From contig NMRA01000024.1 of the NCBI GenBank assembly GCA_002633005.1, positions 62,001-126,000 of the forward strand: DNA of 64,000 nt, given 5' to 3'. The stretch is from Phoronis australis (Eukaryota > Animalia > Phoronida). Shown here piece by piece: positions 11,701 through 63,400 of the stretch (position 1 is the stretch's first letter; the number at the start of each line of letters is the position of its first letter). The notes under the pieces are model-generated. The model did not search any database and was not told where the DNA came from. It saw only the letters and a program-made list of their open reading frames with translations. Position numbers and translations under genes: made by a program.

Positions 11701-11808
11701 GAAAAGCAGCATTTGCAAAATAACACCATTATCACAACTTCAGCTTACAACAATTTTGACACTTTTGCTTTCAAGTGTGCATTGGCAGATTCATCTTTTA
11801 TAAACTAA
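8764..11808 (+). pseudogene. Transib/RAG1-like DDE transposase core + IQ + BRCT + HMG-box-like C-terminus; one frame broken by two nonsense codons
   Basis: ORFs 8764-9489, 9553-11013 and 11026-11808 share a frame and are separated only by TAG 9487-9489 and TGA 11011-11013. Motifs: IWGDG (D 9622), LCGDHMFL (D 9853), CILHGIIRIVEKLL (C(2)H, 10060-10071), TPYM..FHAEAGEHLN (E 10738), IQ motif AATQIQKAWRGYMTRKKL (10924-10977), BRCT-like CFKGLTFIMVG..IQEIVITNGG..FVFDSV and HMG-like LPRNFATLY..KHLPSPEKQLF. Confidence 0.75.
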
Positions 11809-40800: not shown

Positions 40801-43800
40801 GCCTCCACGACACTCGCCCCTGTAATGGAAATTGACACATTTGCAACGTATTGTACACTCAAACTTTTAACAAATAATCAATCAAAATGAACTTGAAAAA
40901 CTATTCCTCAGAAATAAAATGTGCAAGTTTGCAACTGGTACGAGTCCGCCTTTTTAAACCACTTATCTTAACAAGAATGGCCTTATACTGTTAATCTATC
41001 CTACTAGGGGAGAACTCTGATAACTCAGTATTGCTTGAGACCAGGATAAAAAAGTTGGCCTGCGCTCGCGTTTTTTATAAATAAATGAAGTATGGTCCCA
41101 AGCGATAGGCAGATTTAGGGAGGGCAGGGCCCCCCATGGAAATAAGGAAAAATACCATCACGATGACATTTTCATTCACTAACCAGTTTCCCCTTAGAGT
41201 TAGACCCCTCCCTACGGAAATGACAAAAAAAAAAACATCATGATGACGTTTTTAATCATTACCCGGAGTTTTCTTTCAAAAATTTCGATTGAGTTCCCCC
41301 TTACGACATTCTAGATCTGCCAGTGCAAGCAAAAAAGAGCTGTCAGTTCTTTTGAAAACCGACAAATCAGAATGCAAGTTCACAACACCATTAAACTGAC
41401 GTAAAAAGTTATTATAGATCTAAAAAATTCAGCGGCTGTGCAACTTAACTCACAATCTTAACACCTTTGGCAAGTGTTGCCGGAACCGAGTTCTATAAAC
41501 GAGTCATCTAAAATCCAAATTAATCCAATTTTTGGTAGCTGTACATTGAAACAAATGAATGTTGATCAGTTGATCTGGCTACAAGAAACCCCCAACGTCA
41601 CATTCCTGCATTCTCTAACAATAACCAAGCATAAGATTTTTCAAGGGAACCCTGATTAAATTTGAATTTTATCTCTCTCATTTGCCAAACTCGGGGCCAG
41701 TAACTTTAACGGATTACTGCCTCTTCATGCACAACAACTGGTCAAAGCAAATACAAATTTGAATGATGTTAAATAAAAACAAAAAAAAACAAGTGCCTAA
41801 CTCACTCTTCAAAACACGCAGAGCCATCTGACTTCGGTTTCGGTGTTGGGCAATCAGGACCATCTCCACTGATGTGTAGTTAAGGAATTGAAAGCCTGAT
41901 CACTTCATGACTATCATTCTTATTGCATGAAACACGTCACCAGGGGTCTGTTGCATGAAAAGTGACTCAAAGAACTCAGGCAGAAATTTGGTCTGATGCT
42001 CCACATAACCATTTCAGAAGCTGTGAATTGCACACAGTTGCAGTTCTCTTGGCTCAGTGCAGCTGAAGAGCTTCGAGCTCCGCTGGCGGTTTCCAGTGGA
42101 AGTGAGCCAAGTGCATAGCTCACGAAAACGCACGAAAATGTGACTGAATGAACCAGCCAGAAGTTCATTCAATTGTCAATGTCTTAACAAGAGTTTTGTG
42201 CTCAGCTAACGTCACTAGATACAGACAGCTGAGCACCTAACTGTTTGTGTTGCGCTTAAGTGGCAATGACATGCCACAATGGATAATGGTTGTGATCGGA
42301 ACTTAGGGACTTCAGGGACTACAAACTGGACATGCTATGGTCACTGATTTGAGTTGACTGGTCCATCAAAGAAGTGAAAAAGTGAAAACAAACATCTCGA
42401 TTTGTTAGGCCACTTTTATCTAAATACCATTAGCTTAGTAATGTGTATGAGTGAAAAATTGGATGTCATCCGCTGAACAAAGACTTTCGGCTTGCTCAGG
42501 CATTTCGACCGCCTCGAGAATACGAGCTGGCTGCTCAGGATAGTCTACCACAACGAAATTGCTTTAAGCGCAAAACCTCCTGTGTATGTGCACTATCTAG
42601 AAACTAGTTTGGTAACTCATGGCACCACAAAGGATACGAGCAGGTGGAGTTGCCCTCACAGGCTAGATCATCCTCCATGGCCAAGTAGCAGATCTCTGTG
42701 GCCGGGGCAAACTGGCACTCATGACAACACCTGTGATTGACATCACTGAAACAAGAGTACAAAACATGTGAACAAATAAATATTAAGGCAACAGAAAACC
42801 TTTGATTCATCAAATAGCTTTTCGATTGTCGATTTTTAAACCAAGAAAGATTTTTTCTGAATGTTCAACTGTCTGAAAGATCTTAATTGATGCTTAAAAC
42901 ATTAAACAATTGTCGTTTCTAATCATGTGACCATCATTTTTTCTGTCTCAGTTTACAGATGCTTTACAGCAGGGTCTGACCACGGCTGTGTACACTCACA
43001 CACTAACAGCAGACTTTCAACATACAGATCGACTTACAACAGGCACTAACTATGGCCGTGTAAACTCACATACAAACTAATAATACAATTGCAGGCAGTC
43101 TTGTCAGTTCACGTTGAACCAGTAGTGCATGTGGCCCCATTGCACTGATCACCTGGAACCATATTTATGCTTTATCAATATTTAGTTAAAACCGAGCTGA
43201 GCAGCTGGAAACCCGACTCAAGGGTTTAGCAGGGTGGCCCAGTGGGACTTGGAACGCACGACCTCAAGTAAAGAAAGCGGATACCTATCACACTAGGCCA
43301 CACTGTCTCCTGTCGCCTACTAACAGCACACTGTTACAATGTACACGCCATCTTACATCAGGGTCTGACCACGGCTGTGTACACTCACCTACAAACAGCA
43401 GACTGCCTCAGTGTACAGTCTGATGTACAACATTTATCTGTGTTGGTCTGTCCTTCCAATCCACCGTCACATTCCTCCCCGGCCTCAATTTTGGCGTTCC
43501 CACAGTATGCCGTCTCGGGAGAAGCTTCTATTAATCAAAAACAATTATACAAATGAAATATCACAGGGAACAAACAAGTTTCAGATATGAAATGAACATC
43601 GAGACCAAACCAACTTTTGGAGATGATATGCCAACAGTGTGTTCCGTAAAAATAGCGACAATAGTAAAAAGTTTCTTTTAAGATGTATGTGCACGCTCCT
43701 ACGTAATGTACAACATGATGCAAACAGTAACAGGGTTTCAATCTAGTGACGTAACTTGCTGGCTCACATGGCCCGCATCATACAGTGCTATTTCCCAGCA

Positions 43801-46800
43801 CCATGTCATGGTACTTACTAGTTACAGTTGAGTGATTTGCAGCAGACTGTTTTCGCCACAAAACTTCTGCTTAAAAAGATTTAGCAACTTTCAGGCCACT
43901 ACATATTCACATCGTCGCTATATGTTTTGTTTCTAAGTCATTTGACCAAATAATCACCCACATGTTAAGTAGATAGCCTGCAAATCCCACTTCAAATTTA
44001 CCATCTTGTCTAATCAAAATAACACTAAGCGAATACTTTTTTCATCTGAAAGGAAACCTTGCTGTCTTTCCATTATTTCCAATCTCACTTCAAATTTACC
44101 TTCTTGTCTACTCAAAATAACACTAAGCACATAATTTTCAACTTTTACACTTGATTGTAAATAATGGAAAGACAGCAAGGTTTACTTTCTGATGAAAAAC
44201 TTCAGAAGGTGAACAAGTGTCGACTGATGACACGGTACCAATGACCTCTGCTGCCACCTGGCAGCATTAGGAGGAACTTCTAATGAAAAGAACCAGTAAC
44301 AGTGTATTGAGGCTCATTTCAGATGCTGTGAACCAAAGTGAAGAAGCCACCTCAACCAGTCTTCATTTTATCCTGAATCTCTCACATTACTCAAACAAAA
44401 TAAGTAGCACAGTATAATTATAAATTCCAAATGACATTTTGTACCAAAAACACAAGTCAAATGCTTTTAACAGAAATGTGTTCAGAGACAAAATAAGCCA
44501 ATTAATTTTGAACATTTGAGATATAAGTATTGTAAATAAACATAAAAGATAAAACAGTCTGATTTAACATATTCAAAAAATCAAAGTTAACAAATTTGAA
44601 AAATAATTTTGCATATCCTAACCTTTGAAGCATTTGGATGACTTTGCCTTCAACACTTGAGCAATGGACCTCCGGCTGCACTTCGAAAATATCTGTTAAA
44701 ATAGAACATTTTCCTTTCAACCATTTGATGACAGTTCAGAAAATACTTCATATACGACAAAGGTGCGAGCAATCACAGCGCTTTGTAGCGAGACGTGTAA
44801 ATAGTCCTTGAGAAAGGCAGACCACCATGCTAATGTAACTGATATAATCATCATTACCATCACCATCATCACCATCATCACTATATCTAGTGTTTTATGA
44901 AGCCCGCCAACCAGTGTGCACTATGTTGTAAAGATATTCCTATTGTGAATCATCACCATCACTATATCTAGTGTTCTATGAAGCCTGCCAACCAGTGTGC
45001 ACTATGTTGTAGCCATAATTGTGAATCATCAAAACAGCACTTCACCCTGTTAAGCTGGCTAAAAAATTAATGAAAATTGAATTCAAACTTTCACTCTCAC
45101 AAAATTGGCGTTATTGTGATAAGATTTCATTTGAATGCGTTAACGAGGTCAGTCAAATCCCACGTGTCATTTTTGAATTCACAAATTTAGGGCTGGTTAA
45201 CCTTAAAAAAGTCTGAAGCATTTGCTATCTTTGATGGTTTCAATGTTCTTGTTGGACAAGAATATAAATCGGTAAATAAAACAACAAGAATGGATCAACT
45301 GAAATTTGAAATTTTCGGATGTAACAACTTCCTTTATCAACAAAAACAGAAATAAAGTAAAATCAAACACAAAATGACAATCACAAACACAAATAAAGTA
45401 AAATCAAACACAAAATGACAATCACATTTTGTGTTTGATTTTACTTTATTTCTGTTTTTGTTGATAAAGGAAGTTGTTACATCCGAAAATTTCAAATTTC
45501 AGTTGATCCATTCTTGTTGTTTTATATACCTATTTATATTCTACATTTCTTGAAACAATAGTATCCTTGGGAGGATCTGGATCGCCTTATTTAGTTTCAG
45601 ATATATATTTTCTATGTTGGACAAGAAAATACAACCCAATGCCGCAAAGGGATATGACACAACCAATTTCATGTCAGAGAGGAAAAGGACTAAATTAAAA
45701 TTTGATTTTCGTTTTAGAGTCAACTAAACCATGTGAAATACAGCTTTGAAGAATTATGTGGGGCACCTGATTCCAACAGAGGTCAGCACTTACCTTATTG
45801 TTAGTTTCGTAGCCAGACACAGAGTATGTATACATGATGAACTTTCCTCCTTTGAAGGACGAGGGCGAACACTCGTCTGTGTCAGGGTCATGTTCACTGC
45901 CCCAGTTGTGACCTGCGTTATGAAGAACGATGAATTACACCACGGTGTGTGTAATGGGCACGAAACAGTACACGATTATGACCTGTGTACTGGAAAGGAG
46001 AAACTGCACAATGCTCTGTCTACACATATTGTTTTTTCTTATTCGTCTTTCGGATCATTGACTAGACCCTTGATTGTCGCACACGGCTTTGGTATGGCTT
46101 TTGGATTGCCTGTCTACACACCTCTAGTAATCATATGCAAAAAACTGGGGTTGTACAGTCAGGGCTCATTGGAAGCATAAAAATTGCATTTGAGCCGTGT
46201 GCAAGAAAAATGAAGAAATTGCACAATGGCCTGTGTAAGGATAAAGCTGTTAGTAATGGAAATGTAGAAATTACACATTGGCTTGCCTCATTGAAACATC
46301 AAATGACTCGTTATATATATGACCTGCATAAAGTTAATGGAGAAATTTCGCAGTGGACAGTGCTATTGACACAGTATGATAAAGTATTGACCTGTGTATT
46401 GGAAACCTGGAAACTAAATAATGAACAGTATATCTAAAGCATGTGAGTTATGTAGTTATGGACTTAAAACTTTCAAACTTAGAAAAACTAAGAACAAGAC
46501 TCACCAAATTCTGATGTCCGCAAAACATGAAATGAAAACAAAATAAACATTAGTTTTGGTGATGCAAACACAAATGACAATGATCCTCATCCTGAGACAG
46601 TACTGAACATCCTCAAACATGATTAATTATTTTGAGTTATTAGCAAAAACAACTCGGTATTGAAAACTTGAAAATAATCTTCCTCAGAGGCACACTAGCT
46701 CTAGTTTTCCAACTAAAGCATTTTTTTCTTTTGCTGGCTTGAATGGAAACTGGTTAAAATAAATGGCCTGGAATTCCCCCGATGGCCATATTTCTTTGGT

Positions 46801-49800
46801 ATCCAAAACTAAACCGCCGAGTCAAGGCACTTAATGGGCGTGGTCTGAAATAACAATGACCCATCAGTTCTTCCTCAGACTAAAAGCCATTTCTTACCTG
46901 AGTAACAAGCAAGACAAGACTTGGTAAGGAGACCGAAATAAAAAGTTGGTTTTTGACACAATGTGAAAGTTGACTGTAATTTTCAAACGTAAGAGACAGA
47001 ATATTTGGACATAAGATGTAAACGCATAGAGTATAAAACTACAATGCTTTCACAGGGAAATTGCCTCTCTCAGAAACTAAAAAACGTGACAAATTCCAAC
47101 ATTTCACCAAAAGAACTGACCACGCTTGGTCAATCTTAGTGATACATCATCAATATTTTCTCCCAGCTGGAATTTCCTTGTTCTCTTACTGACTATTGCG
47201 TGATTAAGCTTGAAAAAGCTATTGACGATAATCGCAAATCAGGGCAGTCAAGAAATCTTAAAAAGCTTGTTGGGCCAGCAACTTTGATCAACATTGAAAT
47301 CCATGCTTGAAAAATGTTGCTTCTTGGAAACCATTGTTGCATAAGCTTGGATAAAATTTTTGGTCCATAAAAATTCAAAATGACTGTCTTTAGTGAATTA
47401 TATCATTTAGCAAAACTTGTTTTATTACAGTATGGTTACCAAACTAAACATAACCATGTCTCTGGGTATACTAAATTACTCTAAAATAAAGACGTCGACC
47501 ACATTGCTAAGCAAATTATACGAGCTTAGAGTAGAATTTGAAGTAATGTAGACACAAAATGCTTGAAGAAGTATTGCCAAGCTTAAATAATGTTGGCTGA
47601 ACTTGAACAATATTGTCCAAGCTTGAATATTGGATAAGCTTGAATACTGTCCAAGCTGAAAAAATATTGGCAGAGTTGGAATAATATTGGCCGAACTTTA
47701 ATAATATTATCAGTCTGAGCTTAAATAATATTGGCCAAGCTTGAATGTTGGCTGAGCTTGAGTAATATTGACTGAGCTTGAATATTGACCACGCTTGAAT
47801 AATATTGGCTGAGCTTGAATAAAATTGTCCAAGCTTGGATAGTGACTGAGCTTGAATAACATTGGCCAAGGTTGAAAAATATTGGCCAAGCTTGAATAAC
47901 ATTGGCCGAGCTTGAATAGTATTGGCTTGATTGAAGTTACCAGTGAGGATAATTCTACTTCCATGAATTTAGTGTCATACCACAAAAGAGTGTAGTAACT
48001 CAAATACTATACCATGGGTTGTGACAAGATCTGCCTCAGACGTCAGAATGCGTCTCTTAGCTCGATTCAATGAGCTACTCCAGCCAGTGTTCAAATACAT
48101 GGGCGTGGAACCCTGGTAGTAAACTAAATAACAAAATGAACTCTCATTAGGGGCATGGTCTAAATCAAAACAACCAATTTAATATTAAAAAATGCATTTG
48201 CAAGATGCTACGAAATTCTTCAATTTCAGACAAAAATAATTATTTATATTGCCATTTCCCCATCCTTCAAACGCATATCACATGGCTGCGATGGTGCAAA
48301 TATCAATAAACAATGATAGCTGTCAAGTACAAACCATTTTTACAATGATGGAGACCATTTTAATTTTCTTCATAAATCTGATAAATCAAAATTCAACTTT
48401 CCTGTCACATAGCGTCCAAAATTAAAGAATTCTTACCCAGTAAATACTGAGATCATACTCTAAAAACAAATTATGCTTAGTTTACATGCTTCACGTTAAA
48501 TGTGAACAAATCGTGCGTTGTTTAAAAACTCTATGACACATGTTAAGTAACCATTCCCATAATGCAATTCTAAACAACCCATAATGCATTTCTAAACAAT
48601 AAGAAAAAGCAGCATGCAACGTGCAGTTAACACAACAACAACAGGCAACACAATCATTAGTACGCTTTGAAAATGAAACCATCGTCAAATGAACATCAGT
48701 TTAAGCTCTAGAGCTGCCACATTCTAGAGCCAAGCTAAGAGGAATGTTGACCGCACAGTTCATAAGAAGAGCTTTCACAAATGGCAAGCGAACAGGTAAG
48801 CTTGGTGAGGCTATTGCTTAACTGTTCTTTCACAAGACTGAATATTACTTTGAATGAGGGCAAAGAAATGCACTAGGCACACGCATTCCTCAACTTCAAA
48901 AAGAGACACCTAGTGGAAATTTCTGTGTATCACATTGAGTGAACGATTTGTTAGTGACGCTCATAAGCGTAGCCTCTAACCCAAGACACCTGAAGACGGT
49001 GCCAACATGGCCTGGTGAGGGAAAGATGCTGTAAGTATGAGATATTTGCATCATGCCTTCGCGAGGCCAATATCGTGTAGATTATGGTCGCACACAATTG
49101 CTAATTGCTGAGCATTCGCAGACAGATGTCTGCTTGCTCAGCACAAAGCACTAGTGTACAACACTTAATTCACGCCTCAGCAAATCAACATCAACAATAT
49201 GTTAGCAGGAATTGTAGATTTTCAATATCAAACTCAAGTCAACTATGGAATCTTCAAGTTTGTACCTTTCCCTCTCTATTGACAAATCACAATTCAAAAT
49301 GTTTATTTCCAAAAAAACAGAGGGGACTTAGTTATCTCGTATCATATTTCAGCAAATTTGGAACCTATTAACTGGTACAAGAGGCACACCGCTGTGAAAA
49401 TTGGTCGCAGTGACATGACTTATTCCACATAAAAATGAAGAGGTACAAAACTGAAAATTTCAAGCAAATGTAAAAAGTAAACTATGCATTTCACATAGCA
49501 AAAGAAATCAAAATTTTTTGAACTAAACAAATAAATTTAATACTTAACATTGCGGCTCAATGTTTAACAGGCTTCAGTAGTAGAAAAGTCTGTTATTGAA
49601 AATATAACTTATTTAATGAACTTCATCACTTATGCTCTTTGAACAACAAAATGTATTTCCAAAGTTTATAATAAAAATAACAATCAAATGATACAGGTGG
49701 GTGAACATTAGTTATTTTTCAGCCATAGCTTTTCAACGACATTATTAGGGACATCAGCAAAACTTTTAGTATAAACGAAACTCAAGGTAAGCATAGTTCC

Positions 49801-52800
49801 AAATATACAAAAACAATGAATAAACAAAGTAACCCTACGTCAAACACACAGGGCTAAGGTTAAGGTAACAACTTTCAATTGGGCAGGAATTCTCCCACCA
49901 TGCAACAAACAAGATCTGACAACTTGTACATGCTTCAAACAAATTTGGATCGCTTCAATCAGTAGGGAACTGGACTTTTAGTTCTGGCTTCAACCATCGT
50001 CCTCGCATTACCCGGCCAATCTGTAACTCGGAAACCTACCTGAGCCCACTGTGTTTATGGTACGAAGCATTAGCAAAAATGCCACTGTCAAACCCTTACA
50101 ATATTTCACATAACAGATACCTCTGTAACAGAAAAAAAAGGCTTCCCTGGTTTACATGGGCTCCATTTTAAATGCAGTCAAAGCTCATAATCTGCTGTTA
50201 TACAGCTGGCCATTTGAGATCATATTTACGACAAAGATCCCAAAAATAATGGGCTTTCCCTTGATGGTGATTTGGTATATGTTATGTGAAATATCTCAAA
50301 AAGCTAATCATAACTCTCGTAGACATCTGGCACCACCTCCCCCTGTTGATTGCTCAGTTCTGATTGGCCAGAATTTATTCTCCCTCATTGGTCCACCTCC
50401 TGACTGACAGACAACAAAGTACAGTGTGCAGGTCAGTAAAAATAAAAACATACAGTGTGATAGGTGGAACTATATAATGGATATGAAGCATTCCAACAAC
50501 ACTGCATTCAAACAATTGTTTTATTAAAACAATTGCCGACAGACAGACAAATATGTACACGATTCCGATATCAAAATTAGTACCTAATGGTGTTTGTCGG
50601 GCGAATCAGAACATGGATAGCTTAGAGATAGAAGAACAGGCAATATTTTTCTTCAAATCTAAGTAGAAAACACAGTCACCTGGAGAACAGATCCCGCCTA
50701 CGGTATGTTGCATTGGCGAGGCAATCCACGCTAAGCCCAGCACACCGCGGCTGAATGACCAATGAGTGAATAAATGGGCCAAGCAAAACCTTCGCAAATA
50801 AGGATTGCTACTAAACGTCTGCAAATAAAATCAGAGCCATTACTCGTCAGAATTGACAAAGACAAGTGAGGGAAGCAGCGTGTCGCGTGTTGTGGCTTGT
50901 GAGTGGTGCCATCTGACGTCAGTCACTTCCAGGCTTGCCTGAATGATGAGAATTGTCATAGTCTGTCCTTCCTAATTTTTGGGCCACCTGGTTGTTGGAG
51001 GAAAGCTGAGAAACTGGTGCAGAGGTTAGGACATAGGTGGCACTCCAGTAACAAGCACTGGGTGATTGACACCAAGTAGAGTAGGAGCTTATTTTCAAGT
51101 TAAAGTTTGCCCAGAAAAAATGTTTTTTTGGCAAATAGTTCATAGGTAAAGTAGTTTGCATAAACAACGCTGCAATAAAAAGATATGTCTTTGAAATTGG
51201 GAGAATTGTCAACCAGACGTGCTTGTCTACTAAAGGCCACTGAACTAACACGAAAGTCACAGTACCAAAACGAAACAAGTTAAACTACATTGAAAGCACA
51301 ACACATGAATTAACATTCATAACTACAGACAAACAGGAAGCTTAGCATAGCAAGCGAGAAAAGCTTTGAACAAAAACAAAACTATAACACTCCACGCAGA
51401 CGACACAGATAAAATATGAGTCACCTTCAGAGCAAATACCACCAATGCCAAACTCAAACTTGGAAGCAATATATGCCAAGCCTAGAGTGCCGCTGCTGAA
51501 CGACCATGCCGTGAACAAGTGAGCTAAACAGAAAGTTCGATGAGGGTGGTAATAGGGCGCACTCTGAAATGCCTACAAAAAACAGACAAGGCTCTGAGTA
51601 GTATACAACAAAGCCATGCGCAGCAGACATCTATGCTGGTTTCAAGAAGCTGAAGCCAATTTTTATGAGCTCAGAGCTAGCTTCTAGCTAATGAGGGCGC
51701 TTTGAATGACAGAATGAATAGAAAAGATGGTTAATAGGTTTTGTTTGTGCATATTGAATTGTTTGCAACCAATTTCACGACTTTACAATATGAAAAACCC
51801 AAGAGCCTGAAAGAAAAGGAAGACCATCCTGTCAATGTCGTTTCCGTGGTGTAACGTCTGAAAATAAAGTTAGAGAACGTCAGTAGTTATAATCCCATGG
51901 TCAGTACAAGAAACGAACCTTTGAAGTTGACTACTTACTGCTATGAAGTTGGTCTCAGCTTGTTCCTTACTAGGACCAGAAGTGAGTTCTGGATTTGCAA
52001 AGAATTGATAGTTCGGTACTCCATTAGACCATGCTAGGTGTATAAAATTACTCGCCGTGAAAAGTAAACTTTTAGACCCTTATCTCAACCAATAACAAAC
52101 TGGCTCAGATAAGAAGGATTTCTGAACTAACAATTCGTTACTTTTTCGAGACCACGCGTAAAATGACACGCCTTGACAAGCCAACTTTTTGAGCCTACTC
52201 TCAAACAATAGAGAACCGTCACTTCTTTCAAAGCTCATAAATCTACTCCAATTTGGCTAAGCGACAATTTGAGAACAATTTCAAAACAGTAAATAGCCTA
52301 AATCAAAAGTTGGTTTCTGTGATGGAAGGTATGTTTATAACCACTTTAAAGAAACACATGCTTCTCACTACCTAAAACACAAATTATAAAGCAGGTTAGT
52401 CTAACACACACCATGTCTGGAATACTTCCACACTACCGATGGAAAACGAGTTCCATCTCCTAACTCAACAGGGCAACAGCTAATAAAACCGCTGTCAAAA
52501 TTCAATTAATTTTGGCATGGTTGGCCAATCTTTCCAAGACATGCTTCATATCAATTGTAGGCAAAAATGCAGGTAATCTCTTTATTTGTTTCGATGGCAC
52601 GGAACTGACAATTTTGAGACCAGTATTTTCAAGTTAATTTATTTCACAACTTCATAATTAGTCAGTCAGTTAGATGGAAATGTCCCGTTAACGAGTTGCA
52701 AAACATGCGGTTAAAGTTGAAAACTACTCGAGGTCAGGTTGGGAAAACAGAAAATATGAATTTGTCTTAAGCTGCTCTAAATAAATCTAGTTTTCAGCTT

Positions 52801-55800
52801 GATACAAATTCATAATCATGCAACTTGTCAGTGGCATTTGCAGGAGCTGGTACTACGTCGTTTTGGCTTAATTCACACATGTCTACCTACAAGACACATG
52901 TTTCGCTGAACCGCATAAAATCTTAGAACGAAGGTTTCCTTTCCACAAAAACTTGTCCATTTTTCAGAGAATTACACGAATCAAAATTTAAGACCCAGGA
53001 AGGACAAAAAATTATGGCAAAAATATCAGTCTACGCAAAAAATGTCAGAGTGGCCTGGCAAAAGTTCACAAAAAGATCTCAGTGTCCAGGCTGAAACATG
53101 TGATGCAGAAACAAAACACGGCAAAAAATGGCGTGCCACGTAACAAATCCAATATGTCAATACAGAGTGAATCAAACATCCAACACGCATGCAGTGTTAA
53201 TAAAAGACAAACAGATTTGGATTCACCCCCTATTAACCAGTTAACCATTTTGTATAGTTGTTAAAGCCAAAATGGACAACTGCAAACTTAAGATGCCACT
53301 GTAATACTTTCCATTGAAAGTGATTAGTACACGATTAGGTGATGAACACAAGAAGAACAAATGAGCGTTAGAAGGGAATACAGCATAACTTAGCAAAAGC
53401 ACTGTAGGTGGCGCCGTGTACCTCGACTACAGATCCCTCCGGCGACGTCTTGTCTGATGGAGGCAATGTAGGACAGACCGAGAGCGCTGGTCTCGGGTGA
53501 TTCGCCGACTGCCTGCGCCGTGAACAAGTGGGCCAGACAGACCTCAGTGCGATCAATGTCAGAGAACGCCTGCGACACACAGACAAACATCAATGGAATT
53601 AGGATGATTTCCAATCACACGAAGTATCAAAAACCAACCATCTACTTTCAAAATACATGTGTGTGGAGATATACACATCTGGGACGGTTATATGCTACAT
53701 TCACACTGATCAAGTTATAAGCGTCTTTTGCACTAATAAATTTCCGCCTACAATGCATGCAATTTAATCAGGAAATGAAATGTGTCAATTAAGAATTTCA
53801 CCATCACATTTAGATAGTTTTGTATTCTTGGATGAGTATACAGTAATACCACATTTTGCATGATACTAAAATGAAATTTTAATCTTGGAGATTACCAAAA
53901 TTATCAGTCAGAAAGAGCGGTACTAAAAACATAGGGTTTTGAATAAGATTTTGTATCGATGTTCATCTCCTTGTACTTTTAAAATTGCCAAAAACAATGC
54001 ATAGCTTAATGATTTTATTGCAGTCTCTGACAAAGCACTGAAGGTCTTCTGCTAAAATAATTAGCCAACTTCAACGAGCCTTTATCACTGAAAACTGCAA
54101 AAATGGTTAAATACACGATTAATGCAAAGCTGCATTAACACACTGTTAGCAGAGCCACCTAGTGGCAGGGACAAGAACTGAGAAATGCAAACGTAAGCAA
54201 AGTAATTACACAGCAGGATGCAAACCAAACGCAAGATATGTCTTACAGCCAACAGCAACTTAATCAGTTGATTTCATAATGACTAGCACTTAACATAACC
54301 ACTAACATTTTTAAGATTAAGGCAGTTTAACACAATTTGTCAGTTTTACAATAACCTGTCTTCATCTTGGGGCACTCGGTACCACACCTTGTGCTGCGTC
54401 TTTCGTCTTCCATTTTGGTAATACAGTAATTGTTGCATATTGCCAACCGCAGTTTCCCAACACACTGCATGCACTGCCCATGTTCCCCCTAATGCCAATG
54501 AAACTTTCCAAAGTCCATGTTCATCTAAATGCCCACCCCTAATCTCCACGATCCAGACTTCCATAAAAGTGCTTGCGTATGAAATTTGTTAAGGTCAATT
54601 GTACCCCAAATTAAAATAATGTCTTTTTCTCGAAATATCTATCTAGCCATAAGAATATAATTTCTGGAAAAAGGAATCGACACAAATCTATTTATGTCAT
54701 TCTGTGTCAGTCTCGTGGTCCGTGACCCCGCGATTTGGGCAAAAGGGCCGTTTTTTTAAAAGGTACAAGACGGGGAAAAAGATCTTACACCAGCATTCAC
54801 CAAAATTTCTGTATTAAAAAAACTGCTCAAAAATGTGTACGGGATTTCCCATAGTTAATGCCAAAGTTAGAGTTAAAGGAAACCTGCACACAACTTGAAT
54901 TTAATCAGTCATTTATATATTTTTAAACTTTTTAGTTAATTTTAAGGATGAAATGTGGCAAATGTATTGACAAGTCTTTGCAAAGATTTAATTTCGTAAC
55001 AGCTTAGATCTTTTAAAAGCAGAAGGGGTAAAGCGGCGACGTTCTGTTATTAAAAATTAGGAATTAAGATAAACTTCATTGATAGCAAAACAAAGCCACC
55101 TATAACAAGACAAAATTTCGCTGAAATCTCAAAAACAACACTTCAGTATTCTAAAGATCCATTTTATTCTTTTAATTTAGTAAACTTTAAGTGTTACAAA
55201 GACAAACAGCCCCCATGCAAAATGGAAACATTTGGAGCTTTGGAGAACAGAGCCAAATCAGCCATTTTTGACGACACATGGTGTTCCACACTTCGGCATA
55301 TTTGGGCATATTATACAAAATTTTCAACATTCAGGGTCTTTTAAACATTGGGCATTGCATGTGACTGAGCAGGCTAGAAAAAGACAGTGCTTTTAACAGA
55401 ACTGTCAGTAAGCCGAAATGATTTTTGACGGTTAAATATAGCAATAGTGATTGACACATGACCAGAAATCAAGGGAATGAGAAAAAAATTCAACACTGAA
55501 GTTTTATCAATCAAATTTCCGCTGGTGACAGCAATTCTGTGAGGTAGTTTGTTAATAAATTATAGTTTGAATGACCAGGGGCTGGCGTCTAATCTCCATA
55601 CTAGAAATTAAACTTGAGATTATTTTTTGGTATTTTCTGTTCTAGTTTTGTACGACTGTAGTCCGCGCTAGAGTCCATTATGGTTTAAATATGTATTTGA
55701 GTTTCTAGACTAAGTTTGCACTAGACGACACATAAATTCCTGCTACAAACTTGAGCAGAAATTCAGAAAAAAATTGACATTTCGAGTTCCGACTTGAAAT

Positions 55801-58800
55801 TTCAGCTTTAATGCTGGGGTCATCAAGTGCAGACTAGGTTTAAAAAGTTATCCACGTAAGTCAGCAAGTACTTGAGCACAGAATAAGAGACATTTTTCTT
55901 GAGTTCGAACAAAAGTAGAACAGAAAATGTGAAGAAAAATTTCAAATAAAAAAATTAGACCACGGGCCCAGGATTTTGAGAAATATCTATGAATTGAAAT
56001 ACAGATTACATACTTTCTGGCCAAGGCTTACTGACGTTTGTCAAGCAGTGAAGCATGATCAGATTGAGAAAGCAAACACAAATTAAGCACTTATCACAGA
56101 CAAGCATAGATATTGATAATGGCCAAACACCAGAGGCCAACAAACAAAATGTCGCAAACAATTAAATATGCACATTGAATTGGTAACTGAAACACATTCA
56201 AAACAAAATAATTTAAAACAGGGCTACACACAAGGACACTAAATTTGTAAAGAAAGAGTCAAGAACGTTTTGCCAAACAATGCACAAAACTACACAAAAG
56301 GTTTAGTAGAGCACACTATATTATATAACTTTATGTAGACCAGCAAGGTAACATAACATCATGTGTAAAGATAGACAGCACATGGATGCATATGAATGCA
56401 TGCAAACGATACAATATTTTGTAACTAAACATGCATAGTTATTGTGTTAGAAAACACCCAAATCTATTTTAATCCACGTCTTCCACTCCGCTCAGTGAAA
56501 GTAAGATAAAAAACTGGTTTAAAAACTCTTCACAGCACAGAGAATTTTTAGTTCTCAGTAAATCTTTTAAACACAGTGAAATTTTAAAAACTAATTCAAA
56601 GCTACCGCACAGGCCTAAATTATAAATGGACATCTGAATATTGGAAATTGATTCATGAATGTTTATGCCTTAACCCAACGTAAGACTGTCCAGCTGCTGA
56701 CAACAATATCTATTAGTCATTCACAGCTCTGAAATCGTAGTGCAAGGTGGGAAAATAGACACCATTGTGAGGCAGGTGATATTAACGCTTTACCAATATG
56801 TCAGAGTATACAAGTTGATTTCGGGTTATAGGGACCGACAAGGACCAATATTCTCCCAAGGTCCATATGACCTGATAATCCATGGAGATCAGTCTTTATT
56901 TGACTTGTATTATTACACGACCCGCGACCCATTTTTTCCTCCGACTTCTCGTCTCTCATTCGATAACTCTTTTCTCTCCTGCTTTCATGCACTAGCATTG
57001 TCTTTTTGCTTTGTTGTCAAGGATTTATGGTTTGAGTACTTTGGTCAAATCGTGAATAGTGACATCTGATGAGATTTATTCACAGCCTAGTCAGTCCGCA
57101 TTACCTCATGACACAAATTATCACACAGCATTTTAGCCAATCAGAGGATGGAAGTATCAGTGGCCATGTACTTGACCCGCGGATGAGTTTTGGAGACCCA
57201 TGGCTGATCACGAACGAGTACGATACGCCACCAGTTTCGTCACAGTAGGCCCATTTGCATCGACGCATCTCACCGGAGCTATAAACCATCACAACATGCA
57301 TGCAATTCAGTGTTTATGCCAATCTTAGATTCTATAAAACCGAGACCTCATCATGCTCAAAACATATGCAAATGTCGTGAAACACTTACCTCCAACAAAT
57401 CCTTTGTCTGCCAGCCTGTGTTTTCCATGTTATAATGGACGTCTCCTTTTTTCGCCACTTTCGTCCAATCAGTATGAACCTTTATCTACAAGCAAAGAAA
57501 GAACTGTTACTGTGAACAAAACAGTAAAATGTTTATCACATTTTTAGTCTGATCAGCATGCCACCTATGGGCACATCACTTGATCTAACGAATGTAAGCG
57601 ACCACTACTAAGTCTGATTGGATTTCTGTATTCCTCCGGCTCAGTGGACTAGAGCGTCTACACAGTTAGCAGAAGGTCCCGGGTTCGAGTCCCAGAAATC
57701 TTTTCACATGATGTGACCACAGGTGGCGTGCAGACCAGATTTAAAAGTATTAACGATATTCATTAATTTTCCAAAGTGTTGCATAGTATTCCCATTAAAG
57801 TACTTAAAACTACCGATTTCATACAAAACACCATAAAATAACCCTACCTGTCAATCAGGTGTCAAATAAGAGCACCTGCAAACACTGTCCGATGATATGT
57901 TAACGAGCTGATATCGAGTCACAAGGATTTATTGGTTGTTACATACTATGTAGAACTGGGGCAACCAATCAAAGCAGTAGTCATCCTGCGCTGTGTTTAG
58001 TGTGAAAATGTGTTAGATATTGCAGCTTGTTTACCCGTGGTGTTATATATTTAATGTCTTATTGTTGTTAATATGAATTTGTTCATGAGAGAAAATTTCA
58101 TGCCTGTTTATTTGCTCGCCAAATTTACTGCGTTTCTTATTATTTGTTTACAAATATTTGTTAGTCAAATTTACTGTGTTTCTTATTATTTGTTTACAAT
58201 TACCTTAATTTATGGTCAGCGTTGACTCGGGCGTCGATCTGAATGATCGATTTAGACAAATGCACCAGACTTGCATGGAGTAGTCAGATAAATGCACCAG
58301 ACTTGCATGGAGTAGTCAGATAAATGCACCAGACTTGCATGGAGTAGTCAGATAAATGCACCAGACTTGCATGGAGTAGTCAGATAAATGCACCAGACTT
58401 GCATGCAGTAGTCAGACAAATGCACCAGACTTGCATGGAGTAGTCAGATAAAACATAGCAGGAGACAAGTGGCAAGGTGCCGCTGAAAGTCTGACTGCCT
58501 ATAACTCAATTATGATTAACCCAGTTTCATGTTTTGGGAGTTATTAATTCACATAAAACAAGATGTTCACAAAGACACGGGTCCTTTCAAGGATCTTTCA
58601 ATCATGTAAATTGGGGGTGAGCGTTAAGCCAAGCAAAGGTGCTATAAAAAAGAAAGCATGCAAATTTCATGGGTGGGCATTAAATCGAACATGGGCGCTT
58701 GAAAAATGAAACTATTCAAATTTTATGGACTGGCGTTAAATCAAACATGGGCACTTGAAAAGTGAAAGTATGCAAATTTCACAGGTGGTCCTTAAATAGA

Positions 58801-61800
58801 ACAAGCGCATTAACCCGGACAAGCATAATAACTAAGATTTAGCTTTAAAACACGTATGTGTTCTCACATAATAGTCACATTGGCTGTATGGCTGAATGTG
58901 CATGCTTAATCTCACTTCACTCGCTTTAAGAGAAAATGACAAATGGGATGCATTAAACGAAATAATTCACCTCCTTTATTTCAAATCCAAAGTTTGTGAT
59001 GCCGGGTTCAAACTCAGTCCTCCTGTACAAGGCATCTACCCTCCCTATCAAGGCTATCTGAAACAGAAAGAAACTCTTGGTTACAAGTACGGTCAATATT
59101 AATTTCATTTAAAAATGCTCAAGNNNNNNNNNNNNNNNNNNNNNNNNNNNNNNNNNNNNNNNNNNNNNNNNNNNNNNNNNNNNNNNNNNNNNNNNNNNNN
59201 NNNNNNNNNNNNNNNNNNNNNNNNNNNNNNNNNNNNNNNNNNNNNNNNNNNNNNNNNNNNNNNNNNNNNNNNNNNNNNNNNNNNNNNNNNNNNNNNNNNN
59301 NNNNNNNNNNNNNNNNNNNNNNNNNNNNNNNNNNNNNNNNNNNNNNNNNNNNNNNNNNNNNNNNNNNNNNNNNNNNNNNNNNNNNNNNNNNNNNNNNNNN
59401 NNNNNNNNNNNNNNNNNNNNNNNNNNNNNNNNNNNNNNNNNNNNNNNNNNNNNNNNNNNNNNNNNNNNNNNNNNNNNNNNNNNNNNNNNNNNNNNNNNNN
59501 NNNNNNNNNNNNNNNNNNNNNNNNNNNNNNNNNNNNNNNNNNNNNNNNNNNNNNNNNNNNNNNNNNNNNNNNNNNNNNNNNNNNNNNNNNNNNNNNNNNN
59601 NNNNNNNNNNNNNNNNNNNNNNNNNNNNNNNNNNNNNNNNNNNNNNNNNNNNNNNNNNNNNNNNNNNNNNNNNNNNNNNNNNNNNNNNNNNNNNAGGAGA
59701 AGGCGAGGGAGGGAGGGGAAGGCGAGGGAGGGGAAGGCGAGGGAGGGAGGGGAAGGCGGGGGAGGTAGGGGAAGGCAGGGGAGGGAGGGAGGGAGGGAGT
59801 GACACTTTTATTTACATTAGGACATTCAGCAGCTAAACTTATTTAAGTTTTTACCAAAATGTCACATATTATACAGACGCCTTTCTAAATCAAAGCTAAA
59901 AATACTATGAAACAGAAAGTAACATTAACTGTACACTTAGTGAATACTCAGAACCAAATGATTGCCCTAATGTTTTACGCCAATATACCAATGATTCTAA
60001 ACAAAATGTCCCTCACACTTTTATTATGGTAAATAGTGACAGTGTTATGGTAAACAGTGACTTGTGTTTTGGTAAACAGTGACTTGTGTTTTGGTAAACA
60101 GTGACTTGTGTTTTGGTAAACAGTGACTTGTGTTATGCTAAAAAGCCACTTGTGTTATGGTAGTGATTTGTGCAATAGTGACAAGTGTAATTGGCATGTG
60201 TACAAGTTTACCTAGAAAGCAACTTTTGTGGGATTATTTTACATGGGCCATTCTAGATAAAAAATCTATCAACTCTAAACAAAGTGACTCACCAAATAGG
60301 CTGTTGCACTGGCCAGTTTATTCTGGCCCATTTCAGTAAAGAACCGATAATCAGCAACCAGCAGTAGGGGACATGCATTCTTCTTGGCGTCAAAAGCAGC
60401 ACGCTTCACTCGTTCCCCTGAAGACAGGAAGCAAATCATTACAGATAAAAGTTTATGCCACAGACAATAGGCCGAAATATGGAAAAACGTATCCAGCAAT
60501 CTGAACATGGACACCACTTTTGTATAAATAACTTCTGAAATGCAGTTTAGACCATGACCCAATTAGTTAAAAAGTGTCCCCAGGAGGTCTCCAAAACCTG
60601 CGTTTATCGAAGCTGTGTTATACAGAGGCTGACATAAAACATGATCTGAAATAGTAAATATGACAATTTCATTTAAATGTTCCTCCTTCACATCAACTAT
60701 TGAACTTTAAAAAGAGAACGTCTCTTTACATGCATAGGCTTTGCAGTTAACAACGACTAGCATGAATAAAGTTGGAATAGGACGTTCAACTTGTAAGAAA
60801 TTTATCACTTGATTATTTGATAATTGTATTATATTGTGTGCTTTCAAAAAAAGACTATTTTTTACTCAATAAATAAACAAATCAACCAATCAAACAGTCC
60901 ATCAACCAATCAATCAAATCAATTCCAAAGAACGGAAACAATGTTTAGTCCTGGTTAGACCAAATGCAAGTTGTAGTACAAGACAAAAGTAAACACTTCT
61001 GTCATCACTAATGCAGATCTGTTTACAGCAAAAATCAAAGGTAATAAATATTAGGACAGCAAAATTCTAATTGCAGCGTGGCTTAGCCATCTCCCTAACT
61101 CCTGTTAATTCCCTTAGCATTCTTGACCATTAGGTAAGGCTACTCTGACAATAAATTCGACTTCCGACCTGTCACGACAGGGAATTCCTCGTCATCTGTC
61201 TGAATACTTTTACCTTGTACTGTAGGTTAAATCGAAGACACAAACTTCAAACTTGGAAGACATTAACCATAAACAATTTTTCACACTGAGGTAACCAAGA
61301 ACTTCCTACTGCCCATGGCTTAACTGAATGTAATTAGGAAAACTCAAGAGTAGTAAGTCACCGAAAGAAACTATATTCCACACCAAACCATTATCAAAAA
61401 CAACGGTTTTCAAAGATGGGCCTTTAAGGGTAAAGGTGAAACGCATTTGCTGAACAAAAAGTCTTTCCACTCTTACGGTCCGTGAAGTGCCAAAAGTGTC
61501 ATCGCTTAATCACTAACAATAATTAAGATGTCAAAACTTACCTTGTGTTTCATTAGGTACGCTTTTGTCATATGATGTTCTTGGCTGCATGCTGTCTACA
61601 GGATTAGGAGGATTGACTGCGCCGCATACGCTTGGTCTAAGAACATTCACAAGAATTCTTCTATTTATTCATTTATTCATTACAAACTTCTTTAAAAGAC
61701 TGGGTGACCACTTCAGTGAATACACTGATTTTCAAGTGATACCAGTCGGAAATAATTACATGAAGTAAAATACAGACACCTATGTAGAATTAGATTGAAA

Positions 61801-63400
61801 AGATTAATAAATAAAATAAATTGGTTATAAAAATTAGTTAATATGTACAATTAGATGAATAACTAAGACAAAATAGAGTAAAATAATGATGAGCTGAAGC
61901 CTACAGTCCCTAAGTGTGCGCAAAGTCCCAGTATTTCTGTTTGAAGACGTGGACATTGGGCACATTCGTGACAACAGTCCCAGCCATTGTCAGCAACAGC
62001 ACCTCTGTAGGCAAAAGTTCTTTTGCAGCAGTTGTTTTCAGGTTTATCTAATGAGACAAACACTCGGTTGAAAGGACAAAACCACATTAAAAGAAGATAA
62101 ATATAATGAACACTGTAGATGTAAATATAATGAAATAAACAAAAAGTAATCACAGGCAACTATGAAGACAAAAAAAGTACCAGAGCAACTACAAATTCTG
62201 GATTGAATGCCTAGCCGAAGCTCAAATATATACAACAGCTCGTAACGATAGCTACAGCTAATTGAACAAACTAAGAGGTCTGTTTGACAATACATCATAC
62301 TTATTATTTGTTTGTCAACATGACACGACTTGGCTTACCCTTCGTGATTTGGATGGTTCTTATCGAAAGCCTCCTTGACATCTGAGCCCTTGTAAGCGAT
62401 CATAGTATAGTTATTGGAGGCTGGCAGGTGGCGCCATGAGGGCTCAACCACAAAGACGTCCGTGGGGGTGCGGATCGTTGCCGACAACGCATCGTCTTCC
62501 CAATATGCTTGCACAGAGGAGTGAGATTCATCTACAAAAGGTGTCACTACTGCAGTGGTATCCAAGGAACATAACTGATATGCTAATTACGGTGTTCAAA
62601 CATTCAATAAACTTAACTTACCCCCATATTTCCAGCTCCATTAAGAGCAAATTAATTCACAGCAGTTTTTTTTTTCTTAAATGAACCTTGAGCGTTTTAC
62701 AATATGCAAAAAGATGTTTTGATTTGGTTACAAAACGAGCATAGTTGTTTTGTGTATGCCCACAGCACATTTATGAATTCATAGCAATGAAAATAAGAAC
62801 AAAACAGAGCACAGAAGTTGAAACCAAACAGGTTTAAAATTCAATTGTATTTCATCACAATTCACAAGAATTCATGATGCTGGGCAACAAATGATATTTT
62901 AGGTCAACAGAAATTTTATCAAGAACCGTCGCACAAGATATCAAGAGTCTGTGGCGAGATAACAGTTGAGGTTTACTGGATTTACCTCCCCTGACACATT
63001 ATCCCTAAAGCCTTTTCTGAGCCAGAGGCATTCATTAATGGCAAGTCCTGCACAGTCTCTCATTGGTCATTGGAAAAACTATGACATCACAGGATGCAAA
63101 TTTTTGACTGGTCAATTTCTGGGAAACCAATAATGTTTTAAAAAACTTCAAACCCTTCATGTCATAAATTTCTGGTGTCATGGCATAGACATTTGCAGTG
63201 TCACTCTGGTCACATGAGGGCACTGCAAAGGAACTAACTGCTCTAGCTATGTAATCAATTCCATACCTTCATCGTAGCCCGTGTAAAACGAGCTCTCGTC
63301 TACTGCAAAGCGCTTTTCATTGCCGTGGCCATCGACAGCAACTGCTCTGAATGATGAGGACAATAACCCTTTTTGAGATTTAAGGAAGAGGTTGAAGTTC
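34722..63400 (-). CDS. ADAM17: ADAM17 (TACE) disintegrin-metalloproteinase; multi-exon, 5' exon(s) outside the window
   Basis: Exons chain with consistent phases and GT-AG ends: 63400-63267, 62531-62339, 61636-61542, 60417-60293, 59057-58971, 57485-57390, one of [53569-53422 | 51572-51425 | 50818-50680], 48123-48013, 46510-46505, 45912-45794, 44692-44623, 43527-43389, 42745-42638, 41868-41806, 40819-40746, 38308-38175, 37407-37329, 36450-36362, 35589-35536, 34832-(34743/34722). Motifs: cysteine switch PSVCG, furin site [25 protein letters not shown], Met-turn GGKFIMY, disintegrin CGN..EAGEECD, CxxC (CLYCCRD), CANDIS-like [33 protein letters not shown]. Confidence 0.95.
35180..35293. repeat. 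Tandem repeat, about 40-bp unit x3
   Basis: taaccagatactcaacactgataacatta repeated three times. Confidence 0.85.
35536..35589 (-). CDS. ADAM17: ADAM17 juxtamembrane cytoplasmic exon
   Basis: [18 protein letters not shown]; phase 0-0; donor gtaaga. Confidence 0.85.
36362..36450 (-). CDS. ADAM17: ADAM17 transmembrane exon
   Basis: [30 protein letters not shown]; donor gtaagt. Confidence 0.92.
36746..36985 (-). mobile_element. tRNA-derived SINE, copy 2
   Basis: Reverse complement of 22387-22623; perfect 13-bp TSD gctttaagaggaa (36733-36745 and 36986-36998). Confidence 0.88.
37115..37275. repeat. Tandem repeat, about 56-bp unit x3
   Basis: tatgaatctcgg.ga..a.ccccagtgg.cacaga.g.atgac repeated. 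Confidence 0.8.
37329..37407 (-). CDS. ADAM17: ADAM17 stalk (CANDIS-like) exon
   Basis: [26 protein letters not shown]. Confidence 0.88.
38175..38308 (-). CDS. ADAM17: ADAM17 membrane-proximal (CxxC) exon
   Basis: [45 protein letters not shown]. Confidence 0.9.
38505..39187 (+). mobile_element. Second HINE/DINE-like element copy (runs into gap)
   Basis: First 230 bp or so are nearly identical to 28661-28897, followed by the same tandem core repeats. Confidence 0.8.
40538..40719. repeat. Minisatellite, 31-bp unit, about x6
   Basis: acaacaatggccaccactatgcaccacaaat repeated; it explains the three overlapping repetitive ORFs here. Confidence 0.92.
40746..40819 (-). CDS. ADAM17: ADAM17 membrane-proximal exon
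   Basis: [24 protein letters not shown]. Confidence 0.9.
41806..41868 (-). CDS. ADAM17: ADAM17 disintegrin/membrane-proximal exon
   Basis: [20 protein letters not shown]; donor gtgagt. Confidence 0.88.
41869..42637 (-). other. U12-type (minor spliceosome) GT-AG intron in ADAM17
   Basis: Donor GTATCCTTT; branch site TTCCTTAAC (41887-41879) ends 10 nt before the exon start; no long polypyrimidine tract. Confidence 0.92.
42638..42745 (-). CDS. ADAM17: ADAM17 disintegrin exon
   Basis: [36 protein letters not shown]; followed by a U12-type donor. Confidence 0.9.
43085..43311 (-). mobile_element. tRNA-derived SINE, copy 3 (older)
   Basis: Diverged match: aattgcaggc..cattgcactgatcacctggaa..tcaagggtttagcag..gtaaagaaagcgg..ggccacactg.ctcct. 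Confidence 0.8.
43389..43527 (-). CDS. ADAM17: ADAM17 disintegrin exon
   Basis: [47 protein letters not shown]. Confidence 0.92.
44623..44692 (-). CDS. ADAM17: ADAM17 end of catalytic domain
   Basis: [23 protein letters not shown]; phase 0-1. Confidence 0.9.
45259..45542. repeat. Near-perfect foldback inverted repeat (arms about 118 bp)
   Basis: 45259-45376 is the reverse complement of 45425-45542. A related single copy lies at about 63460-63670. Confidence 0.9.
45794..45912 (-). CDS. ADAM17: ADAM17 zinc-binding/Met-turn exon
   Basis: [40 protein letters not shown]; donor gtaagt. Confidence 0.94.
46505..46510 (-). CDS. ADAM17: ADAM17 6-nt microexon (AATTTG) completing the catalytic Glu and Phe of HEFGH
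   Basis: actaat..polypyrimidine..ttttgcggacatcag|AATTTG|gtgagtc. It is required to turn CAT G|GT CAC (HGH) into CAT GAA TTT GGT CAC (HEFGH). Confidence 0.85.
47560..47930. repeat. Degenerate tandem array, about 22-bp unit
   Basis: (g/a)agcttgaataatattggc(c/t) repeated about 17 times. Confidence 0.85.
48013..48123 (-). CDS. ADAM17: ADAM17 exon ending at the first zinc-ligand His
   Basis: [37 protein letters not shown] + G; phase 1-1. Confidence 0.93.
50680..50818 (-). CDS. ADAM17: ADAM17 alternative exon C
   Basis: 139 nt, phase 0-1: [46 protein letters not shown]; ttatttgcag| and G|gtgact. Confidence 0.88.
51425..51572 (-). CDS. ADAM17: ADAM17 alternative exon B
   Basis: 148 nt, phase 0-1: [49 protein letters not shown]; ttttttgtag| and G|gtgact. 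Not in the supplied ORF track. Confidence 0.88.
53422..53569 (-). CDS. ADAM17: ADAM17 alternative exon A (CLAHLFT..LGL..GGIC)
   Basis: 148 nt, phase 0-1: [49 protein letters not shown]; tcgcag| and G|gtacac. Confidence 0.85.
57390..57485 (-). CDS. ADAM17: ADAM17 catalytic-domain exon
   Basis: [32 protein letters not shown]; phase 0-0; donor gtaagt. Confidence 0.9.
57545..57743. mobile_element. Palindromic MITE containing a tRNA-like Pol III head
   Basis: Arm tctgatcagcatgccacctatgggcacatca pairs with reverse complement tctggtctgcacgccacctgtggtcacatca; TTA on both flanks; internal ggctcagtggactagagcg..cccgggttcgagtccc (57638-57693). Confidence 0.65.
58254..58452. repeat. Minisatellite, 32-bp unit, about x6
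   Basis: agataaatgcaccagacttgcatggagtagtc repeated. Confidence 0.92.
58971..59057 (-). CDS. ADAM17: ADAM17 catalytic-domain exon
   Basis: [29 protein letters not shown]; phase 0-0. Confidence 0.9.
59695..59799. repeat. Polypurine G/A-rich simple repeat at gap edge
   Basis: gggagggagggggaaggcga-type units. Confidence 0.85.
60035..60160. repeat. Tandem repeat, 21-22-bp unit
   Basis: tggtaaacagtgacttgtgttt repeated about 4-5 times. Confidence 0.85.
60293..60417 (-). CDS. ADAM17: ADAM17 furin site and start of catalytic domain
   Basis: [41 protein letters not shown]; donor gtgagt. Confidence 0.93.
61542..61636 (-). CDS. ADAM17: ADAM17 cysteine-switch exon
   Basis: [31 protein letters not shown]; phase 2-1; donor gtaagt. 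Confidence 0.85.
62339..62531 (-). CDS. ADAM17: ADAM17 prodomain exon
   Basis: [44 protein letters not shown]; ttttgtag| and GG|gtaagc. Confidence 0.92.
63267..63400 (-). CDS. ADAM17: ADAM17 prodomain exon
   Basis: [44 protein letters not shown]; ttttacag| and G|gtatgg. Confidence 0.9.

Follow-up and report, generated by a model that had tools for sequence, protein, structure and literature searches.

In a 64,000-nucleotide (nt) stretch of the Phoronis australis genome (contig NMRA01000024.1, positions 62,001 to 126,000; hereafter the window), a gene for ADAM17/TACE was identified on the minus strand, in which one exon of the catalytic domain is present in three tandem copies. ADAM17 is a membrane-bound protease which releases signalling proteins from the cell surface. 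The cluster of probably mutually exclusive exons at the rim of its active-site cleft, designated here A, B and C, is a real feature, both transcribed and conserved. We consider it fairly probable that one ADAM17 gene carries three tandem copies used one at a time and that the resulting enzymes likely differ in the fit at the rim of the cleft.

Structure of the Exon Cluster

The three copies and the constitutive exons on either side were located as follows:

Exon A: 53569-53422, minus strand, alternative exon of 148 nt, phase 0-1, AG/GT borders (translation, alignment, frame test and RNA joins)
Exon B: 51572-51425, minus strand, alternative exon of 148 nt, phase 0-1, AG/GT borders (only the downstream RNA join listed)
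Exon C: 50818-50680, minus strand, alternative exon of 139 nt, phase 0-1, AG/GT borders (RNA joins on both sides)
5' exon: 57390..57485, minus strand, constitutive exon before the cluster, 96 nt, phase 0-0 (RNA joins to the exon ending at 58971, to C and to A)
3' exon: 48013..48123, minus strand, constitutive exon after the cluster, 111 nt, ending with the first His of the zinc motif (RNA joins)

The first-pass annotation of this DNA, made from the sequence alone, had proposed three intact homologous exons of these lengths and phases with canonical splice sites, and the coordinates, borders and open translation agreed with it. The introns across the cluster were, in transcript order, 3820, 1849, 606 and 2556 nt long. 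The lengths of A, B and C each equal 1 modulo 3 and no stops were encountered on translation. Three of the eight possible combinations, namely the single copies, remained open through HEFGH, whereas transcripts with none, any two or all three copies ran into a stop earlier, confirming the former claim that the joining of any two exons shifts the frame.

Among A, B and C, 19 of 53 alignment columns were invariant, with 21/45 to 30/46 identical amino acids and a DNA identity of 53-59% over aligned codons. A profile of 61 distinct homologous segments gave exactly three matches in the window (E from 5.5e-16 to 3.8e-23). The proportion of differences between the copies was 0.67-0.81 at silent sites (pS) and 0.28-0.40 at amino acid-changing sites (pN), with 0.81 and 0.28, respectively, for B versus C. 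The silent sites were near saturation and pN was low, which indicates that A, B and C are old copies under purifying selection. In the constitutive exon 48013..48123, two variants were listed among the reads, both silent. The exon C acceptor region (50814-50836) has an 87%-identical 23-nt copy at 51853-51875 in the A-B intron; no exon-like frame was seen by eye after this copy, which may be a duplication relic or a chance similarity.

The gene around the cluster was delimited by homology:

ADAM17 gene: 36360..63411, minus strand, span from tblastn of 8 ADAM17 proteins (the 5' end lies beyond the matched part)

In this search with full-length proteins, all other exons were single-copy in the window and in order from 63411 to about 36360, and the prodomain, catalytic, disintegrin, membrane-proximal and membrane segments followed one another (query residues 64-743). 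Only the exon of the cluster was tripled, with no N gap between 48123 and 57390. The best whole-domain tblastn matches were found for Capitella (59%) and for Tubulanus, Lingula and Owenia (53-56%), and a tree of the constitutive part with 23 rows did not separate the window from annelid, nemertean and brachiopod rows; by sequence alone, a lophotrochozoan other than a mollusc, probably an annelid, was the most likely source. The exon segment corresponds to residues 332-366 of human ADAM17 (E from 5e-6 to 6e-5), with a weaker match to ADAM10 (2e-3), which was outranked by 18 ADAM17 sequences in the match list for this segment. The zinc motif HEXXHXXGXXH is intact and is assembled across the exon border at 48013, a 6-nt micro-exon and the exon starting at about 45912. 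By sequence comparison the gene is assigned to ADAM17/TACE, closer to it than to ADAM10 or other reprolysins, and its product is presumed, by analogy with ADAM17, to be a sheddase.

Use of the Exons in RNA

Splice joints were searched in three raw-read runs of the same species (X1, X2 and X3), with about 19% of each run read, and in one contig run; joints were listed only from 3 reads at 2 different starts. They covered the gene from 60293 to 40818. All four runs contained the join of upstream exon 57390 with the exon that ends at 58971, and the orientation of the reads was consistent with a minus-strand transcript.

Each copy was joined downstream to 48123, with 5, 4 and 19 reads in X1, X2 and X3 for C (28 in total), 0, 5 and 1 for A (6 in total) and 0, 0 and 5 for B (5 in total, with 4 starts in X3). 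Upstream, exon 57390 was joined to C by 2, 3 and 7 reads (12 in total, in addition to 6 loose ends in X3 reading into C) and to A by 0, 0 and 5 reads. Exon C was the default form (28 of 39 downstream joins), with A and B being minor. Joins between A and B, A and C or B and C, or skipping all three copies, were not listed in the three runs, which were of low depth, against 39 single downstream joins. At the downstream join, the A to C ratio was not the same in X2 as in X3 (Fisher p 0.005).

Mutually exclusive use of A, B and C is supported by the single joins of all three copies to 48123, those of A and C from 57390, the frame test and public isoform pairs. The junction-read check proposed in the first-pass annotation was borne out for every downstream join and for the upstream joins of A and C, leaving that of B unlisted.

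These reads also bear on the origin of the copies. Adjacent ADAM17 genes with different exon types exist in Capitella, so paralogy does occur; nevertheless, it is highly improbable that the three copies represent an assembly artefact, alleles or separate paralogues, given that the other exons are single, the cluster contains no gap, the copies differ at the DNA level far beyond the allelic range, reads of A, B and C share the downstream exon and those of A and C share the upstream one. A mis-assembly or mixture of paralogues, named earlier as a refutation, was ruled out for A and C by the joins to shared flanking exons; for B, only the downstream half of this evidence was listed.

The missing upstream join of B, and its 5 downstream reads from one of the three runs, would also fit a situation in which only A and C are working alternatives and B is rarely spliced or fading, and B and C were weakly grouped (89/13) in one tree. 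We regard this as improbable: B is intact, its pS of 0.81 and pN of 0.28 relative to C are unlike neutral decay, and the strongest long-range duplex of the cluster (described below) sits just before B.

The introns at 48300-51800, around B and C, showed a sense read depth several-fold above that of the intron before A (in X3, up to 13 versus 1-2), which may reflect slow splicing, retention or priming on A-rich stretches.

The Swapped Segment in the Protein

The segment encoded by A, B or C corresponds to elements which we take, partly from general knowledge of TACE structure, to be strand III, the bulge and the edge strand of the catalytic domain. Human T339-S355 (TYQDFDMGTLGLAYVGS) aligned to the corresponding stretch of each copy. 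Invariant in all three copies were CLAHLFT, GGIC and the equivalent of human Leu348-Gly349-Leu350, the core of the edge strand, and the variable positions comprised the loop before the edge strand, 347, 351-352 and 355-361 (human numbering). In exon A, the loop is 4 residues longer directly before the edge strand, Ser is present at the position of human A351, and the Phe and Gly of the standard loop are absent, with both cysteines and the edge strand retained. Exon B has 3 extra residues near its start and a loop of standard length. Exon C is the nearest to single-copy ADAM17s and has Trp at the position of human Y352. At the position of human Thr347, Ala, Thr or Val is found across the three exons.

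The structural placement was made via a model of Lingula isoform X1. This AlphaFold2 model, based on a 33-sequence alignment, had a mean predicted local distance difference test (pLDDT) score of 75.7 and superposed on TACE catalytic-domain structures at about 2.2 A (Foldseek). The insert occupies residues 337-341, in the loop that connects strands 325-330 and 346-349. According to the accessible part of PMC12491190, inhibitors are held through backbone hydrogen bonds by Gly346, Leu348 and Gly349 of ADAM17, and a non-prime hydrophobic site is lined by Thr347 and Leu350; the sIV bulge-edge strand of TACE is contacted by TIMP-3, as stated in the part of PMC5098442 that was available.

The location of the segment at the active-site cleft, as annotated earlier, was supported by the alignment to human ADAM17 structures, the Lingula X1 model and these excerpts of both papers, and human ADAM17 indeed has one version of the segment. 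The claim that the variants differ exactly at the edge held in part: the loop leading into the edge strand and the residues after it vary, whereas the Leu-Gly-Leu core is the same in all three. Judged by sequence, the A, B and C enzymes likely differ in function, and we infer that their substrate specificity or inhibitor sensitivity may be altered.

Possible Control of Exclusive Use

The first-pass annotation had considered the introns too long for steric exclusion and had pointed to RNA structure, protein or nonsense-mediated decay. The introns of 1849 and 606 nt and the GT-AG sites gave no sign of steric or spliceosome-type exclusion, and decay is available because every wrong exon combination causes a frameshift; for RNA structure, only a candidate was obtained. 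In the part of PMC5740500 consulted, a frameshift with decay is reported for 60% of human clusters and joining reads in only 22% of those, so that another layer of exclusion appears usual.

The candidate RNA elements were:

Candidate docking site: 56148..56179, minus strand, in the upstream intron (predicted only)
Candidate selector: 51746..51769, minus strand, some 175 nt ahead of the acceptor of exon B (prediction only)

The duplex of 56151-56174 with 51746-51769 is a 24-nt inverted repeat with 22 of 24 Watson-Crick pairs and a predicted energy of -31.4 kcal/mol. None of 200 resampled controls reached its score and, of 171 further real windows with this geometry, one did, which corresponds to a p of about 0.035 with six tests; the arms of the duplex are not repeated elsewhere in the 64-kb window. 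The second-best partner of the docking site among 423 windows of the gene was the exon A acceptor (53552-53579; -23.3, relative to a mean of -12.7 and standard deviation of 2.9). Either pairing would be a candidate for disfavouring exon A, and the -31.4 duplex would loop A out.

A downstream docking model was rejected, with nothing above background for A, B or C, as was the upstream model for A and C in the test with resampled controls. A duplex of similar score in L012, one of the metagenome loci described below, was also discarded as not comparable, its partner lying several exons upstream. The search of Rfam gave no match in the window.

Proposed Mechanism and Its Alternatives

In the explanation we prefer, each enzyme would take the part of its catalytic domain formed by strand III, the bulge loop and the edge strand from a single one of A, B and C. 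The invariant Leu-Gly-Leu would keep the backbone pairing and catalysis, and the changes at 340-347 (the 4-residue insert in A; Thr347 replaced by Ala, retained as Thr or replaced by Val), 351, 352 and 355-361 would retune side-chain contacts. Such changes of the rim would alter the fit for substrates, the prodomain or TIMP-type inhibitors. Exclusivity is likely achieved by competition of splice sites, with C as the default, together with nonsense-mediated decay of frameshifted products, and possibly by pairing of the RNA site 56148-56179 before exon B, with A looped out, or over the A acceptor.

Several results weigh against this explanation. The join 57390 to B was not listed in X1-X3 at the threshold of 3 reads, and the use of B was documented by 5 reads of one run, which, the intronic reads being abundant, may come from partly spliced RNA. 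The listing threshold and the 19% sampling of reads leave room for rare double inclusion. When both joins were summed, the A to C ratio did not differ significantly between X2 and X3 (p 0.14), and the differences between samples are weak. A selector for C was not found, with background only being observed, and none of the loci L010, L011, L012 and L014 had a significant equivalent of the duplex; the L012 duplex with its partner several exons away indicates that such pairs arise without a docking role. In the protein, the edge-strand core and the backbone-pairing residues are unchanged in A, B and C, the insert of the Lingula X1 model had a pLDDT below 50, its shape thus being predicted without confidence, and contacts outside the active site of TACE seem to matter more than recognition of the cleavage site (PMC5098442, available part).

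The last point and the invariance of the Leu-Gly-Leu core, CLAHLFT and GGIC are what would be expected if the exons were exclusive and maintained while the substrates stayed the same, the swap tuning folding, stability, maturation or prodomain release, or setting the ADAM17 level through splicing and decay. The heavy intronic depth around B and C, suggesting slow or regulated splicing, also fits it. However, Thr347, a residue that lines the non-prime site (PMC12491190, accessible part), is among the positions that vary, and the loop extended in A is also longer in the alternative copies of Lingula, Owenia and beetles; we consider this alternative possible, though rather unlikely. There is a small chance that form A, with its long loop, has little or no protease activity and serves as a decoy, binding, e.g., iRhom or TIMP without shedding: its insert immediately precedes the edge strand, the standard loop has lost its Phe and Gly, and the corresponding Lingula insert has no confident shape. 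On the other hand, an intact zinc motif is encoded by the exons common to all forms, neither the two cysteines nor the edge strand is lost in A, and many beetle species retain a 3-residue insert in this position.

Copies of the Exon in Other Animals

Duplication of this exon is not confined to this genome, and swapped or duplicated forms were found in a brachiopod, four annelids and many insects. The Lingula anatina ADAM 17-like entries XP_013383110.1 and XP_013383126.1 (isoforms X1/X3) differ from XP_013383117.1 (X2) by exactly this segment, with X1 having the longer loop and LGLSY, like exon A. In the Owenia model, half a standard copy comes after an exon that combines TAQAV, an insert and LGLSY, and in the models of Paralvinella and Lamellibrachia a standard copy is fused with a Ser-type copy. 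Capitella has two adjacent ADAM17 genes (ELU11170.1 and ELU11171.1; P0034 and P0046) with one exon type each, and this pair may, judging from the sequences, represent two splice forms divided between paralogues. Both forms were found in 8 beetle species, with a 3-residue insert at the same place as that of exon A in many species, and pairs of insect Tace forms were present in Diabrotica, Diorhabda, Psylliodes, Gonioctena and Rhynchophorus; the Kerria model fuses the two forms. Gene models of these animals are often wrong at this exon, as shown by the models of Paralvinella, Lamellibrachia, Owenia and Kerria, in which the copies are fused.

In 2 of 16 metagenome loci (L010 and L012), the DNA likewise carried two phase 0-1 copies; the 16-kb locus L003 had one copy and most of the other loci were too short to judge. 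Among the annotations examined (not genome searches), those of mollusc, nemertean, bryozoan, priapulid, dipteran, barnacle and fish showed one form only. The order of the copies varies between annelids and the first copy of L012 is yet another type, which indicates that turnover has occurred. In the intron after the first copy, blocks of 75-81% identity were noticed at L012 5374-6026, L011 4308-4527 and L014 2379-2525, which are possible splicing control elements; no significant conserved duplex of these blocks with the upstream intron was found in the three related loci.

In a tree of 48 exon segments (46 columns), 12 Ser-type exons were placed together (98/91), and within this group exon A was placed with Owenia, Lingula X1 and P0333 (96/89). 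The Ser-type group was rejected as evidence of orthology, being defined by the Ser column, and its support vanished once this column was dropped. Two hypotheses were compatible with the approximately unbiased (AU) test, which did not reject a shared origin with the arthropod alternative exon (p 0.40) and did not reject an origin of A, B and C local to this lineage (p 0.29). Exon A and the Owenia exon have TAQAV, the insert and Ser in common, which favours their orthology within annelids, and orthology of the Lingula X1 exon to exon A is suggested by sequence.

A broader interpretation, which we hold only tentatively, is that the rim exon may be an ancient interchangeable module found throughout protostomes, duplicated before the split of annelids, brachiopods and arthropods or repeatedly at one hotspot. 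Most invertebrates would then switch the substrate range and inhibitor sensitivity of their only ADAM17 by splicing, here with three versions under an RNA-structure switch, and this would have been missed because human and Drosophila have a single version.

Comparison with Known Systems

The choice of substrates by ADAM17 is an open question, for which the usual answer is sought away from the cleft, in iRhoms and exosites. The variants described here are natural ones that differ only in 46-49 residues at the cleft rim, and they have been maintained in annelids, a brachiopod and insects. They constitute a ready-made experiment on the role of the bulge loop and edge strand in recognition of substrates, prodomain and TIMP, and mark a region tolerant of insertions.

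The gene resembles ADAM17/TACE (family M12B; structures 1BKC, 3CKI and 8SNL) in the exon match to residues 332-366, the domain exons and the zinc motif, and differs from human ADAM17, which has one version of the segment, in having three. The Lingula isoforms swap the same segment, with two annotated forms in contrast to three here, in an automatic annotation without comment. In the insect Tace pairs, the exon and its boundaries are the same and the longer-loop copy precedes the standard one; the insect alternative has Ala at 351 and fell outside the lophotrochozoan Ser type in the free tree, with a common origin not rejected by the AU test as given above.

Tandem mutually exclusive exons such as those of PKM, ion channels, Dscam and Mhc are alike in phase, in a length not divisible by 3, in single use and in variation near a functional site (PMC5740500, PMC7954323 and PMC9741552, parts consulted), whereas the target here is the substrate-binding rim of a sheddase. 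In the accessible part of PMC7954323, only 9 events of the set touch catalytic residues. The docking/selector arrangement of the Dscam type (PMC6071210, accessible part) has its candidate counterpart here in a single site of the upstream intron with a strong partner ahead of an alternative exon; in contrast, a clear selector was predicted here for B only, the partner at A covers the acceptor and there is none for C.

No description of exclusive exons in ADAM17 or Tace was found in the literature searched, which lacks most subscription papers. Term look-ups gave no ADAM17 or Tace in the main text of PMC7954323, PMC9013439 and PMC9741552 and no ADAM17 in PMC5740500, as far as the consulted parts of these papers extend, and neither ADAM17 nor fly Tace appeared in the searched supplements of PMC9741552 (in which the control 'para' was found) and 6 supplements of PMC7954323. 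The class of splicing mechanism is well known and the isoforms are present, uncommented, in public annotations. There appears to be no earlier description of ADAM17 as its target, of a form with three alternatives or of the wide occurrence in protostomes.

Micro-Exon and Other Features of the Window

A further exon of the gene was recognized from extra letters in reads of all 4 runs between 48013 and 45913:

Micro-exon: 46505..46510, minus strand, 6 nt, an AG/GT-bounded hexamer in the DNA

It supplies the catalytic Glu and the Phe of HEFGH. No reads skipping it were listed in the 4 runs at the threshold of at least 3 reads. The micro-exon is in frame and its skipping would give a catalytically dead ADAM17. 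At other loci, only one side of these 6 nt has an adjacent intron, be it the 5' or the 3' side, whereas ADAM17 here has introns on both. The models of Paralvinella, one Capitella gene and Sinanodonta are without the two residues, perhaps through a missed micro-exon.

An intron of the gene contains an almost perfect palindrome at 45260-45620, probably a repeat resembling a miniature inverted-repeat transposable element, where reads from both strands are abundant; a related piece was noticed by eye near 63450-63650. Outside the gene, long intronless frames of 262, 245, 507 and 264 amino acids are located at 7709-11805 on the plus strand, the last three sharing a frame and being split by single stops. 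Their Pfam matches were only a BRCT domain and an IQ motif, and from its sequence the region looks like a decayed mobile or viral-type element.

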